NCBI GenBank assembly: GCA_025937235.1
Contig: JAICRU010000006.1
Location: forward strand, 1-60,759
Reading direction: 5' to 3'
Length of the DNA stretch: 60,759 bases
Source of the DNA: Acidimicrobiia bacterium
Lineage (GTDB): Bacteria > Actinomycetota > Acidimicrobiia > Spongiisociales > ZC4RG35
Made by a program: the position numbers and the translations under genes. The number at the start of each line of letters is the position of its first letter. Position 1 is the stretch's first letter. Shown here in pieces: positions 10,139-14,105 of this stretch. The notes beneath the pieces are model-generated. The model worked only from the letters and a program-made list of their open reading frames with translations, ran no database searches and had not been told where the DNA came from.

Positions 10139-11329
10139 GTGGTAGTCGATCAGGACCTGGTCCGCCACCTCTCCGAATCGTCGGTCTCGGTGGAGCTCCA
10201 GACCGAGGAGATGACCCTCAACATCGGCCCACAGCACCCTTCCACCCATGGAGTGCTGCGGCTTGTGGCCAGGGTCGACGGCGAGCGGGCCTTCGACGTC
10301 CAGCCCGTCATCGGCTACATGCACCGCGGCTACGAGAAGCTGTCCGAGGTGCGTACCTATCCCCAGATCACGACCCTGATCAACCGGATCGACTGGGTGG
10401 CCGGATACGCCAACGAGATCCCATTCGTGGTGGCGGCGGAGAAGCTGTTGGGGCTGGAGGTGCCGGAGCGGGCCCAATACATCAGGCTGATCCTCACTGA
10501 GATGGCCCGCATCTCCTCACATCTGATCTTCATGGCCTCCTACCCACTGGAGCTGGGAGCGGCCACGCCACTCTTCTTCGCATTGCGGGAGAGGGAACGG
10601 GTGCTCGACCTCCTCGAGGGGGTGACCGGTGGCCGGTTCCACCCCAACTTCAACCGGATCGGCGGGGTCAAACCGGCTTACGGCTCGGGCTCGAGCACAC
10701 GCAAGGTGATCCAGGATCTGCCCGCAGGGTTCCTCGCCGCGACGCGGGAAGCGATGGATCGAGTACTCGAGGCCGTCGAGGAGCTAGAGCTGCTGGTGGC
10801 CGACAACGAGATCATTCTCGCCCGGACCAAGGGGATAGGGGTGCTGCCCGCCGATGTGGCCGCCGCATACGGGGTCTCGGGGCCCAACCTGCGTGCATCG
10901 GGGGTCGCCTTCGACCTTCGCAAGGTGGAGGACTATCTGCCCTATCACCTGTTCGACTTCGAGATCCCCACCGGAGAGAACGGAGACTGTTGGGATCGTT
11001 GGCATGTCCGTCTGCTCGAGATCCGCCAGTCGGTCCGGATCGTCCAGCAAGCCATCGACGGGATCCCCTCCGGCCCGCTCCAGGCCAAGGTGCCCAAGAT
11101 CATCAAGGTCCCCCAGGGTGAGACATACGTACGCGCCGAGAACCCGAAGGGAGAGATGGGCTACTACCTGGTGTCCAACGGCAATCAGGGCCCCTACCGG
11201 CTCAAGATTCGCTCGGCCAGCTTCTCCAACATCTCCATCCTCCCCTGGATCCTGGAGGGGGTCCTGGTTCCCGACATCATCGCGATCCTGGGCAGCCTGG
11301 ACTTCGTGCTCGGAGACGTGGATCGATGA
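10139..11329 (+). CDS. nuoD: NADH-quinone oxidoreductase subunit D
   Basis: NIGPQHPSTHGVLRL, GYMHRGYEK, ENPKGE and GSLDFVLGDVDR. Confidence 0.96.
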   Translation: MVVDQDLVRHLSESSVSVELQTEEMTLNIGPQHPSTHGVLRLVARVDGERAFDVQPVIGYMHRGYEKLSEVRTYPQITTLINRIDWVAGYANEIPFVVAAEKLLGLEVPERAQYIRLILTEMARISSHLIFMASYPLELGAATPLFFALRERERVLDLLEGVTGGRFHPNFNRIGGVKPAYGSGSSTRKVIQDLPAGFLAATREAMDRVLEAVEELELLVADNEIILARTKGIGVLPADVAAAYGVSGPNLRASGVAFDLRKVEDYLPYHLFDFEIPTGENGDCWDRWHVRLLEIRQSVRIVQQAIDGIPSGPLQAKVPKIIKVPQGETYVRAENPKGEMGYYLVSNGNQGPYRLKIRSASFSNISILPWILEGVLVPDIIAILGSLDFVLGDVDR

Positions 11330-11460
11330 CATTCCGGCCGACTTCGAGTCTCGGCGACTCTCAGGCGGGCACCGGGCTGCCCGGGGGGCCTCCGCACCCT
11401 TCGGGTCGAACAGACGCCCGTCGGCCGGGGCTCCCGCTCCAAGATGAGGTCTGCCGGTGA
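11326..11460 (+). repeat. Structured intergenic repeat, copy 1 (nuoD/nuoH), containing a 44-aa bridging ORF
   Basis: CCGGCCGACTTCG...CGAACAGACGCCCGTCGGCCGGGGCT; starts at ATGA (nuoD stop) and ends at GTGA (nuoH start). Confidence 0.85.
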
Positions 11461-12464
11461 GCGCCTTTCTCTCCGACCTCTTCGCCAACTTCTGGGTGTC
11501 CCTGGCCGGGAAGCTGCTCCTTGTCGCCCTGATGATCCCTCTGGTCGGGATGGTGATCGGGTACGCCGAGATGAAGCTCTCGGCCAAGATGCAGGCCCGG
11601 GTGGGGCCCTACTTCGCCGGCGGGCGTTGGGGCTGGGCCCAACTCATCGCCGATGGGGTCAAGTTCTTCCAGAAGGAGGACCTGATCCCCGAGGAGGCTG
11701 ACCGCCCGGTCTTCAAGATCGCCCCGGTCCTGGTGCTCATCAGCACCGTTGCTCTCTTGGTCGTGATCCCATTCGGCCCCGGGATCATCTTCAGGGATCT
11801 CTCGGTCGGTGTCTTCTATGCACTGGCCATCTCCTCCCTCAGCACCGTGGGCATCCTCATGGCGGGCTGGTCATCGGGTAACAAGTACTCCCTGATGGGT
11901 GGTCTGCGGGCTGCCGGTCAGCTCATCGCCTACGAGTTGCCCCTGGTCCTCGCCGTGATCGGATCGGTGATGCTGGCCGGGACGATGAGCATGAGCGGCA
12001 TCGTGGAGGCCCAGATCGAGGCGGGCTACCCGTACCTGATCATCCAGTTCGTGGGTTTCGGGATCTTCATGGTCGCCGCCCTAGCCGAATTGAGCCGCAT
12101 TCCCTTCGACATGCCCATCGCCGAGTCGGAGTTGGTGATGGGCTATCTCACCGAGTACTCGGGCTTCCGCTTCCTCTTCTTCTTCCTCGCCGAGTTCGCC
12201 AACATGTTCACCCTCTCCGCGATCGCGGTGACCCTCTTCCTCGGCGGCTATTGGCTACCCGGCATACCCGAAGACGTCCTGGCCTATGCCGGGCCGGTGA
12301 TCGTCCTGGCCAAGACCTTCCTGCTGGTCTTCGCCATGATCTGGTTCCGCTGGACCTTCCCCCGCTTCCGGGAAGATCAACTGCAGAGCCTGGCCTGGAA
12401 ATGGCTGATCCCCCTTGCCCTGGCCAACATCATCATCACCGGAGCGTTCAAGGTGTACCTGTGA
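11457..12464 (+). CDS. nuoH: NADH-quinone oxidoreductase subunit H
   Basis: [36 protein letters not shown] and PRFREDQL. Confidence 0.96.
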
Positions 12465-12973
12465 CGGCGACTTCCAATCGGACCACCAACCGACGGGTTC
12501 TCCCCGGGATGGGGATGGCCAAGGGCCTGTGGGTGACCATCTACACCATGGTGCGCACCATCTTCCGCCCCGGGAAGTACCTGGCCACGGTCAACTACCC
12601 CCTGGTCAAGGAGACCCCGGTCCCGAGGGCGCGTGGGGTCATCGCCCTCGACCAAGAGGCCTGCACCGTATGCATGTTGTGCGCCCGGAACTGCCCCGAC
12701 TGGTGCATCTACATCGAAGGGCACAAAGAGGAGAAGCCGCCGGACAAGCCGGGCGGGAGGGTCAAGGTCCGCAACACCCTCGATCGATTCGACATCGACT
12801 ACGCCCTCTGCATGTACTGCGGCATCTGTGTCGAGGTGTGCCCGTTCGACGCCCTCTTCTGGTCCCCTGAGTACGAATACTCGGAAGTGAAGATGGGGGC
12901 CATGCTCCATGACATGGACCGGCTCCAGGACTGGTTGGAGACGGTCCCGCCCGATCCGGAGCTGGAGAAGTGA
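12461..12973 (+). CDS. nuoI: NADH-quinone oxidoreductase subunit I
   Basis: Two [4Fe-4S] motifs, [12 protein letters not shown] and [15 protein letters not shown] overlaps the nuoH stop. Confidence 0.95.
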
Positions 12974-13115
12974 GCTTCGTGGATTGCCGGCCGACTTCGT
13001 CCTTCGGCAACCTCCCGATTGCCGACTCTCCACGCCGTGCGGGCGCAGGCACACCTCAGGGCGAACAGATGCCGGTCGGCCGGGGCTGCCGCCGCGCGGA
13101 AGGATGTCGTCATGA
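12970..13115 (+). repeat. Structured intergenic repeat, copy 2 (nuoI/nuoJ)
   Basis: ATTGCCGGCCGACTTCG...CACACCTCAGGGCGAACAGATGCCGGTCGGCCGGGGCTGCCGC; bounded by GTGA (nuoI stop) and ATGA (nuoJ start). Confidence 0.85.
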
Positions 13116-13663
13116 GCGTCAGTGAGTGGCTTGGCTCACCGGTCAATTGGGTGTTCCTCGTGGTGGCGTTGGCGACCCTCTTCTCGTCCTGGCGTGTCGT
13201 GACGGCCAAGAACGTCGTCCACGCCGCACTGTATCTGGTTGCTGCCCTGGGTGGTACCGCAGTCCTGTTCCTGATGCTGTCCGCCGAGTTCGTCGCTTGG
13301 GTGGTGGTGCTGGTCTACATCGGCGCGGTGCTCGTCCTCTTCCTCTTCGGGATCATGATCACGAGAGCCCCGACCGGGAAGGACGTCGGCCTCGACACCC
13401 CTCACAAGACCTGGCCAGCTCTTCTCTCGGTCGCCACCTTCGTGCTGCTCTCCTGGGCCTCGATCCAGGCGTTCGGCACCACCCAGGTCGAGAGCGTCGG
13501 CGAGCCGACCTCGACCGAGGTGCTCGGCCTAGCCCTGCTGGGTAGGTTCGTGATCCCCTTCGAGGTGGTGTCCTTCGTCCTCCTCGCCGCGTTGATCGGC
13601 GGGGTCACCATCGCCCGGCGCGACCTGAGCCCGGTCGAGGAAGAGGAGAGGAGAGCGGTCTGA
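13112..13663 (+). CDS. nuoJ: NADH-quinone oxidoreductase subunit J
   Basis: NVVHAALYL, AEFVAW, VYIGAV and PFEVVS; start at ATG 13112. Confidence 0.93.
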   Translation: MSVSEWLGSPVNWVFLVVALATLFSSWRVVTAKNVVHAALYLVAALGGTAVLFLMLSAEFVAWVVVLVYIGAVLVLFLFGIMITRAPTGKDVGLDTPHKTWPALLSVATFVLLSWASIQAFGTTQVESVGEPTSTEVLGLALLGRFVIPFEVVSFVLLAALIGGVTIARRDLSPVEEEERRAV

Positions 13664-13968
13664 TGCTCCTCAACCAGTTCCTGATCCTGGCCGCGGCGAT
13701 GTTCTCCCTCGGGATCTATGGCCTGCTCGTCCGGCGCAACATCGTCCTCATCCTGCTCTCGGTGGAGCTGATGCTGGCTGCGGTGAACATCAATCTGATC
13801 GCATTCGAATCGGTCCTCCGGAGCCCCGAGGCCATAGGCCAGGTGTTCAGCATCTTCGTGATCACGGTGGCCGCCGCCGAGGTGGGGATCGGCCTGGCCA
13901 TCGTCCTGATGATCTTCCGCAACCGGAAATCGGCCAATGTCGATGAGCTCGACTTGATGAGGTGGTGA
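13663..13968 (+). CDS. nuoK: NADH-quinone oxidoreductase subunit K
   Basis: RRN...SVELML and VAAAEVGIGLA. Confidence 0.95.
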   Translation: MLLNQFLILAAAMFSLGIYGLLVRRNIVLILLSVELMLAAVNINLIAFESVLRSPEAIGQVFSIFVITVAAAEVGIGLAIVLMIFRNRKSANVDELDLMRW

Positions 13969-14105
13969 GCAGCTTGCATTGCCGGCTGACTTCGCCCCTG
14001 AGCACCCCTCGCCTGTGTGTCGGGGCCTCGGCTCGCGCCGCCACACCTCGAGGCGAACAGACGCCGGTCGGCCGGGGCTACCGCTCCGTCGGGGGTGAGT
14101 CGTGA
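13965..14105 (+). repeat. Structured intergenic repeat, copy 3 (nuoK/nuoL), containing a 46-aa bridging ORF
   Basis: ATTGCCGGCTGACTTCG...CACACCTCGAGGCGAACAGACGCCGGTCGGCCGGGGCTACCGC; GTGA at both ends. Confidence 0.85.

Follow-up and report, generated by a model that had tools for sequence, protein, structure and literature searches.

A family of hairpin-forming repeats at gene junctions of complex I and other operons in uncultured soil Acidimicrobiia

Results

Repeats in the complex I operon

The DNA analyzed here, referred to below as the window, is a stretch of 60,759 nucleotides (contig JAICRU010000006.1 of GenBank assembly GCA_025937235.1) from a bacterium of the class Acidimicrobiia, whose genome is denoted G000. 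It contains an operon for respiratory complex I (8492-19254) in which nuoH comes directly after nuoA-B-C-D, the genes nuoE, F and G being absent from that interval; the Pfam check of the operon's nuo gene identities covers A, D, J and L only. Three junctions of this operon are occupied by spacers that belong to one family of ~130-nt repeats, which we denote the hairpin repeat. Of the genes that flank these spacers, nuoD, nuoJ and nuoL were confirmed by Pfam, and nuoH, nuoI and nuoK were assigned by position, open reading frames (ORFs) and homology search.

The nuoD/nuoH spacer (copy c1, 11326..11460, plus strand, sense; covariance model E 7.4e-15) holds the 5' arms of two stems, P1 (11334-11342) and P2 (11343-11350), followed by the P2 3' arm (11403-11410), a bulge (11411-11419), the P1 3' arm (11420-11428) and a GAGG (11446-11449) ahead of the nuoH start codon, GTG at 11457. 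The nuoI/nuoJ spacer (c2, 12970..13115, plus strand, sense; E 1.7e-18) has its P1 5' arm at 12987-12995, the bulge at 13066-13074, the P1 3' arm at 13075-13083, GGAAGGA at 13098-13104 and the nuoJ start ATG at 13112. Within the nuoK/nuoL spacer (c3, 13965..14105, plus strand, sense; E 1.4e-18) the P1 5' arm, CCGGCTGAC, lies at 13982-13990, the bulge at 14058-14066 and the P1 3' arm at 14067-14075, and nuoL starts with GTG at 14102. A preliminary description of the window, made from the sequence without database searches, had reported these three spacers as alike. Its coordinates were correct, the three sequences align, and the spacers begin and end with RTGA as it described (ATGA..GTGA, GTGA..ATGA and GTGA..GTGA).

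The 3' motif of the spacers, CGAACAGAYGCCSGTCGGCCGG, was matched four times in the window with up to three mismatches, against 0.01 matches expected from shuffled sequences. Three matches are the nuo spacers, and the fourth, on the minus strand at 29182-29203, belongs to a further copy that was absent from the preliminary description (c4, 29160..29285, minus strand; E 2.8e-16). Copy c4 lies between the stop of guaA (29157) and the start of a gene for a CheA-like kinase (~29344), both on the plus strand, and is thus antisense to its neighbors. The 5' motif occurs exactly in the window solely in the three nuo spacers. With up to two mismatches it was matched nine times against 8.9 expected, which is the chance level, and by itself it therefore carries little weight.

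Structure of the hairpin repeat

The anatomy of the repeat was derived from 160 anchored, non-identical copies, and its base pairing from 105 distinct copies aligned to the model. It should be noted that both sets take in same-locus copies of related genomes, so that counts over 160 or 105 copies are not counts of independent events. P1 is a 9-bp stem formed by CCGGCCGAC and GTCGGCCGG, and P2 a 7-8-bp stem formed by TTCGCCC and GGGCGAA; between them, on the 3' side, lies a conserved bulge of 9-10 nt, (A)CAGACGCCG. The loop of ~55 nt starts with GGCAACCCTCA and ends with CACACCTC, and its middle ~30 nt are free in sequence. Conservation extends from ~13 nt 5' of CCGGCCGAC (GCnnnTTTGATTG) to ~18 nt 3' of GGGGCT (nCCGCyyCrnGGcaAGGT), as judged from 59 standard-length copies among the first 75 anchored, and includes a T(T)GAT directly 5' of the stem. 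The inverted repeat is internal, beginning ~13 nt from the 5' end and finishing ~22 nt from the 3' end of the element. A terminal stem joining the extreme ends was also considered and rejected, as it barely exceeded its control.

Pairing was found in 98.4% of the cells of the stem alignment, and 10 of the 16 pairs had changed on both sides. Double changes filled 113 cells, compared with 33 in shuffled alignments, and none of 500 shuffles reached 113. When the partners were slid against each other as a control, 16-54% of the cells were paired. P2 was part of the aligning model, and its counts are therefore biased towards pairing. The register of P1 was absent from that model, so that its six C-G to U-A and four C-G to G-C changes provide independent support; on the strength of these double changes, the P1 register initially proposed by RNAalifold (GCCGGC/GCCGGU) was dropped. 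The whole stem folded more stably than shuffled sequences (mean z -2.7). An apical hairpin inside the loop was rejected, since its folding was no better than that of shuffles (mean z -0.43, 105 copies). The same applies to the idea of the loop as a captured or guide sequence, since the loops of 10 copies in G000 share only chance 14-15-mers with the rest of the genome.

G-U pairs (7 cells) were no commoner than A-C mismatches (9 cells), which implies equal constraint on both strands. A DNA hairpin, or a hairpin used in both orientations, fits this better than an RNA that acts only in the sense orientation.

Copy number and taxonomic range

A whole-genome profile search revealed 11 copies in G000 (3.08 Mb, 171 contigs, 65% G+C). 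A covariance model built from them recovered the same 11 at E ≤1.8e-11, with the next match at E 0.09. All 11 lie between co-directional genes, seven sense and four antisense. Outside the window, the copies neighbor nuoL/nuoM of a second nuo operon, atpD/atpC, the genes for a PALP-rhodanese enzyme and a carbamoyltransferase, a SnoaL-like gene, genes for two ABC ATPases, genes for a thiolase and a CoA-transferase, and genes for an ATP-dependent DNA ligase and an ABC ATPase. The flanking genes are unrelated housekeeping genes.

This distribution bears on the suggestion in the preliminary description that the repeat might be a regulatory RNA module of one operon, and likewise on a regulatory RNA leader, riboswitch-like or a thermometer, that would recur along the complex I operon. 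The three sense copies do precede membrane-subunit genes, and their Shine-Dalgarno-like tail adjoins a C-rich stretch that, by eye, could pair with it. However, the repeat is found genome-wide beside unrelated genes, with 11 copies in G000 and up to at least 56 matches in congeners; 4 of the 11 G000 copies are antisense, the same operon lacks the repeat in most congeners, and the loop has no conserved sequence and folds like shuffles. Furthermore, the repeat has no match in Rfam: at gathering thresholds, the window's sole match was a tRNA gene (53319-53391, plus strand), and two copy-bearing loci gave nothing at E ≤1. An RNA leader is therefore disfavored and very unlikely. The lack of an Rfam match agrees with the preliminary description, in which the repeat was not recognized as a named family.

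The hairpin would also resemble an integron attC recombination site in shape, being a bulged hairpin whose conserved boxes are paired, with extrahelical bases and a terminal part that varies. However, the flanks here are not cassettes but core housekeeping genes whose order is conserved (nuo, atp, rpl), and copies are single and in both orientations, making this explanation barely credible.

Of 30 other species in the genus of G000, 20 have the hairpin repeat and 10 have none; the matches per genome range from 0 to at least 56 (up to 56 candidates were scored per genome, so the top figure is a lower bound). Leaving out the unpublished genomes G018, G027 and G028, it was present in 17 of 27. 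When the covariance model was applied to 150 genomes across the class, matches were found in 8 of 15 others of the same family and, for two sister families, in 1 of 7 genomes and 1 of 5 genomes, with no match in the remaining ~120. Copies from other genera keep P1, the bulge and the base of P2, while the loop may shrink to 3-4 nt. At least 119 stretches of a species-representative collection contain one exact 23-mer from the 3' arm; among the 80 listed, all records are metagenome-assembled genomes (MAGs), mostly labeled Acidimicrobiia or Acidimicrobiaceae, with some labeled otherwise by their depositors. The range of the hairpin repeat is thus a single family-level clade of uncultured soil Acidimicrobiia. 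No match to it was found in plasmid collections, phage collections or viral contigs. A literature search, judged from the search results alone, returned no account of repeats of this kind in Acidimicrobiia, nor of palindromic repeats that target junctions.

DNA sequencing runs of soil, root and rhizosphere from several studies contain the window's stretch. Among short contigs from four runs, DNA contigs cover c1 plus both of its flanks in two (X12 and X14), and the one RNA run yielded three short contigs, none of them informative on the repeat. Where contigs join 12997-13009 to 14042-14056, the joint is a cross-join of repeat copies, and one such joint bears the loop of the copy on contig C120 of G000. 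No joint corresponding to an empty site was seen in the short contigs of these runs.

Recurrent occupation of the same junctions

The nuo region was compared across G000 and 24 published congeners, and every junction was read. At nuoD/H (24 genomes with data), five genomes carry the hairpin repeat, one of them reversed, 13 have a bare ATGA overlap, three a 5-nt spacer, and three repeats of other families. At nuoI/J (23 genomes), the hairpin repeat is present in three, with an RTGA overlap in 12, a spacer of 3-9 nt in four and other repeat families in four. At nuoK/L (22 genomes), it is present in four, with spacers of 1-4 nt in 12 and other repeat families in six. The two intervening junctions are never occupied by the hairpin repeat: nuoH/I (25 genomes) shows bare overlaps or short spacers and no other families, and nuoJ/K (23 genomes) shows the same except for another repeat family in two genomes (G001 and G022). 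G000 itself has a bare GTGA overlap at nuoH/nuoI (12461..12464, plus strand) and TGATG at nuoJ/nuoK (13661..13665, plus strand). Comparison with relatives, as advised in the preliminary description, thus revealed that junctions filled in some genomes are empty sites in others, with one RTGA overlap or a spacer of 1-5 nt.

Occupied genomes fall into separate, well-supported clades of a maximum-likelihood tree of nuoH-K from 23 genomes. Copies at nuoD/H are found in the clade of G000 and G008, in G013, and in G015, where the copy is reversed and whose sister G019 has none; G024 also has a copy at this junction, and this genome could not be placed in the tree. At nuoI/J, the occupied genomes are G000, whose sister G008 lacks the copy, and the pair G010 and G004. 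Those occupied at nuoK/L are G000, the pair G019 and G015, and G006. The minimum number of separate events on the tree is thus at least three for nuoD/H, at least two for nuoI/J and at least three for nuoK/L. Therefore, either insertions entered these junctions several times, or a single old insertion underwent precise loss many times.

Further junctions show the same pattern of filled and empty sites. The rplN/rplX junction, an ATGA overlap in G000, is occupied in three other genomes. An antisense copy lies at nuoM/N in G024, G008, G015 and G022, and this site is empty in G000 (17757..17775, plus strand), where it consists of TGA, 13 nt and ATG. Contigs C10 and C11 of G019 carry two near-identical nuoH regions, with nuoM/N empty in one and occupied in the other. 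In addition, every genome of the genus has a second nuoH, ~45% identical, in another operon (on C120 in G000).

Genomic context of the copies

The strand of the flanking genes was called by third-position G+C for the 160 copies. Between co-directional genes, 43 copies are sense and 27 antisense; 34 lie between convergent genes and 8 between divergent genes, and 48 have at least one unassigned flank. Ninety-one copies have a co-directional gene upstream, and its stop is the element's own TGA (TTGATTG) in 28 of them and lies immediately before the 5' end in 26. In sense operonic copies, the downstream gene starts 22-30 nt past GGGGCT and ~8 nt past the AAGG/GAGG of the tail. At convergent sites, the upstream gene ends at the element's TGA, with a few native codons replaced. 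No promoter-like or terminator-like features were found at the nuo copies.

The preliminary description regarded the repeat as an element of RTGA junctions. This is correct for nuoD/H, nuoI/J, rplN/X and nuoM/N, where one RTGA at the empty site becomes two around the insert. It does not extend to the whole family, which occurs in both orientations and between convergent genes, and in which the distance from RTGA to the conserved core ranges from 1 to 9 nt. The doubling of RTGA is not distinguishable from a true target duplication, because any insert that spares both genes would force the same outcome.

Translation across occupied junctions

An ORF runs through each of the three nuo copies. The ORF of c1 has 44 codons, from the ATG at 11326, which overlaps the nuoD TGA, to the TGA at 11458-11460, which overlaps the nuoH GTG. 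That of c3 has 46 codons, from the GTG at 13965 to the TGA at 14103-14105, which overlaps the nuoL GTG. The ORF of c2 has 51 codons, from the GTG at 12970 to the TGA at 13123-13125, which lies inside nuoJ, 11 nt beyond the ATG and out of phase with the ATGA. A full relay ORF of this kind was found in ~12 of the 43 sense operonic copies. Across the 160 copies, frames are open in 64-73% on the sense strand and in 34-56% on the antisense strand.

These features suggest how such a repeat might enter an operon without breaking it. Copies would arrive, or would only survive, in tiny spacers at gene ends, namely RTGA overlaps in operons, positions just after stops and gaps between convergent stops. 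They occur there in either orientation, and each copy folds into its long stem as DNA or as RNA of either strand. A sense copy would be nearly harmless because it would restore what its insertion interrupts. The TGA of its 5' end (TTGATTG) is often the stop of the upstream gene, its 3' tail has the Shine-Dalgarno-like AAGG/GAGG ~8 nt ahead of the downstream start, and its stop-poor sense strand would let a short ORF bring ribosomes across from the stop of the upstream gene to the start of the downstream one, in the manner described for mycobacterial MIRUs.

Turnover of copies

Loops of at least 75% similarity were found only in same-locus copies of related genomes or in adjacent tandem copies, never in dispersed copies. 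The copies are of uneven age. The nuoD/H copies of G000 and G024 differ at ~16 of 130 positions, compared with 3 differences in 150 flanking bases, and the nuoD/H loops of G024 and G008 are ~40% different. By contrast, the nuoM/N copies of G024 (L037) and G008 (L239), loop included, differ by one substitution and two indels in ~135 nt, while their adjoining coding flanks are 10-20% different. G000 is the closest relative of G024 by NuoH identity (99%), yet it has no nuoM/N copy, and no donor copy with the nuoM/N loop was found in G024 or G008. Recent transfer is the only explanation that we can offer for these near-identical copies. Head-to-tail arrays of 2-4 copies, 5-290 nt apart and with loops 75-93% alike, were observed at loci of other MAGs (L135, L165, L160, L163, L121 and L164) and are the sole recent duplications seen.

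A bolder reading would be an undescribed mobile hairpin that homes to stop/start junctions through an enzyme recognizing the bulged stem, with the loop replaced or rewritten on transfer. The hints in this direction are that several lineages independently acquired copies at the same junctions, in both orientations, that the nuoM/N copies of G024 and G008 are near-identical while their nuoD/H loops are not and no donor with the same loop exists in either genome, and that no known transposase family accompanies the repeat. We consider such a homing element rather improbable.

Mobility and the nature of the repeat

We favor, with a probability of about 0.6, the interpretation that the hairpin repeat is a new family of non-autonomous mobile repeats, similar to MIRU and ERIC, that is tolerated at gene junctions and would be moved by a separate enzyme. 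The proposal of a palindromic, MIRU-like repeat at translational-coupling junctions is supported. Several results weigh against this interpretation. Firstly, a target duplication of fixed size is not apparent, as the best pair of boundaries shares a 3-mer in only 7 of 105 copies. The longest words common to both flanks are, with few exceptions, at the level of the shuffled control, and the complementarity of the ends is close to its control as well (runs of at least 6 nt in 9 copies, against 3.7 expected), which speaks against terminal inverted repeats. No arm pair more than ~100 nt apart, as a long autonomous version would have, was found in G000. Secondly, recent copy-and-paste is not seen directly, because dispersed copies never share a loop. 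Thirdly, copies that are antisense to their genes have a sense strand just as poor in stops, so that stop poverty is a built-in property of the element rather than a result of local selection or host translation at each site. The statistics of the relay ORF are likewise weak by our own estimate, which is not a computed test, since sense frames are open in 64-73% whatever the context and the phase is right in two of the three spacers.

The preliminary description's duplication of a 4-bp RTGA target consequently does not hold for the family, in which no 3-5-bp direct repeat occurs at fixed boundaries. One of the few exceptions among the flanking words is locus L054 of G004, at nuoL/nuoM of its second nuo operon, where a perfect 19-bp direct repeat, AGGTCCTCCCCATGTTGAC, surrounds the copy and spans the ribosome-binding site together with the start and the stop that overlaps it.

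A further difficulty for a mobile element concerns the enzyme. Searches for a transposase or RAYT gene, as had been advised, found Y1/RAYT (PF01797, Y1_Tnp) in 0 of 31 genus genomes, with 6 of 14 genomes positive in the control, and the TnpB zinc-ribbon domain (PF07282) in 0 of 31, with 8 of 14 in the control; as the genomes searched are MAGs of 61-99% completeness, absence is not proven. In the search for IS91 Y2, the control matched in no genome. IS110 is present in 8 of 31 genomes and does not track copy number, being absent from four genomes with 39-46 matches (G015, G019, G013 and G010) and present in the copy-free G001 and G009. At the four published-genome IS110 loci that were checked, no copy of the repeat was nearby.

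These searches bear equally on the idea of a single-strand-DNA hairpin element of the IS200/IS605 (PATE) or REP/RAYT kind, in which an HUH enzyme acting in trans would cut beside the TTGAT-like 5' flank and leave no target duplication. The insertion sequence ISDra2 inserts 3' of TTGAT, and the conserved T(T)GAT directly 5' of the stem, the strand-symmetric covariation of a bulged hairpin and the lack of target duplication would all agree with such a mechanism. However, neither Y1_Tnp nor TnpB was found in the 31 genomes, and the repeat is one long hairpin rather than separate left-end and right-end hairpins. We therefore regard this as quite improbable.

The conservation of the arms is the last point against a purely mobile repeat, and it fits a host function just as well. 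In same-locus pairs with flank identity of up to 86%, the arms are 65-97% identical, compared with 39-63% for the center and a shuffle baseline of 48%, which implies selection in place or gene conversion acting on the arms. The stem and bulge might accordingly be a binding or cleavage site that serves the host, kept at each locus by purifying selection, with the spread being secondary; candidates are an intercistronic hairpin for mRNA processing or stabilization, of the kind shown in REP and ERIC, and a site in the DNA to which a nucleoid or recombination protein would bind. That arms stay near consensus while the loop randomizes, that the core of P1, bulge and P2 base is kept in other genera, and that many copies lie in respiratory-complex operons (two nuo and atp) would all be expected of such an element. 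The part of a review that treats ERIC-type repeats reports co-transcription and control of mRNA decay (PMC3184786), which offers a precedent. However, 10 of 30 congeners with the same operons have no match and keep plain overlaps, copies occur in both orientations (43 sense versus 27 antisense between co-directional genes) with 34 more between convergent genes, G-U pairs are no commoner than A-C mismatches, which is unusual for a structure selected purely as sense RNA, and the nuo copies lack terminator-like and promoter-like features. A host-serving cis element thus seems to us possible but unlikely.

Other repeat families at the same sites

A second, unrelated repeat of 85-130 nt fills nuoD/H, I/J, J/K and K/L in other species, at L058 (G001) and L068 (G022) and also in G014, G021, G023 and G030 (L059, L066, L072 and L077). 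Its 5' motif is GCTCGCTKCGCTC; next to this the repeat forms an imperfect palindrome of species-specific short tandem words (CTACGAG, GTTCTACGT, GGTGAGT and GTACCAAGTAC), and ends with GGAGG or GGAAGGA before the start codon. A third, palindromic repeat in G000 consists of AAATTGGG, ~35-45 nt and CCCAATTT. It was observed at C73:25508, C164:41909, C47:10548, C118:16642, C137:12149, C67:20957 and C127:7549, intergenic sites where other species carry the hairpin repeat. A loose match lies in the window at 47731-47797, and the loose pattern gives 80 matches in the genome, many of which are surely false.

Discussion

Few cases are known in which small repeats enter packed operons without breaking them, chiefly the MIRUs, whose movement is still unexplained. 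The hairpin repeat provides a second, independent and much richer case, with hundreds of copies in dozens of related genomes, in which filled sites can be set against empty ones at matching junctions of essential operons for complex I, ATP synthase and ribosomal proteins. These junctions are also used by at least one unrelated repeat family. Together these sites form a natural test set for what a junction requires for translational coupling, and for an enzyme that recognizes a bulged DNA hairpin in Actinomycetota. For annotation, the repeat accounts for odd gaps of 130-150 nt and for assembly breaks in these MAGs.

Miniature inverted-repeat transposable elements, or MITEs, have as their defining features terminal inverted repeats, target duplications of fixed length and a parent insertion sequence with the same ends, and none of these was found for the hairpin repeat, with the search for a parent covering G000, plasmids, phages and viral contigs. 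With REP/BIME and RAYT and the IS200/IS605 PATEs it shares a hairpin basis, the lack of target duplication and a conserved short flank beside the stem. It differs from them in that it is much longer than REP and that no Y1 or TnpB gene accompanies it in the 31 genomes. As in Neisseria REP2 and the Borrelia upstream repeats, the repeat supplies the ribosome-binding site of the downstream gene. Those repeats, as the passage on them in the review describes, also add a promoter and an ATG (PMC3184786), whereas the start codon here lies in the flank and no promoter-like site was found.

The preliminary description contrasted the palindrome of the repeat with MIRUs, which it held to lack dyad symmetry. 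This contrast is unsafe, since the review's section on MIRUs gives them imperfect terminal and internal G-C-rich inverted repeats (PMC3184786). In the descriptions of their architecture in two sources, a MIRU lies in an operon junction with an internal ORF that overlaps the neighboring stop and start (PMC12548453, PMC3184786). By these accounts, the hairpin repeat shares with MIRUs the intercistronic junctions of operons, empty sites in relatives (PMC3184786, PMC12548453), tetranucleotide repeats that flank filled sites (here nuoD/H, nuoI/J, rplN/rplX and nuoM/N), G-C-rich inverted repeats, ~40-50 copies per genome and local tandem arrays. The ORF through the unit that overlaps the adjacent stop and start is exact in c1 and c3, and in c2 ends 11 nt past the ATG. 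The likeness is one of architecture as described in these sources; Rfam has no model for MIRUs. The hairpin repeat differs from MIRUs in its length (~130 nt, compared with the 40-100 bp given there), in its long covarying bulged stem and free loop, in occurring in both orientations and also between convergent genes, in lacking a fixed tetranucleotide duplication, and in its acidimicrobial hosts.

In form, the repeat is closer to ERIC and bcr1. Elements of this type are, in the review's account, ~127-155 bp long, intergenic and often at gene 3' ends, with a copy number that varies strongly among relatives and compensatory changes that keep a long hairpin (PMC3184786), all of which apply to the hairpin repeat. 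They differ from it in having terminal inverted repeats and short direct repeats (TA in the ERIC type, 5 bp in bcr1; PMC3184786), neither of which was found here. We thus class the hairpin repeat as a new family among interspersed intergenic palindromic repeats, MIRU-like in its working and ERIC/bcr1-like in its form.

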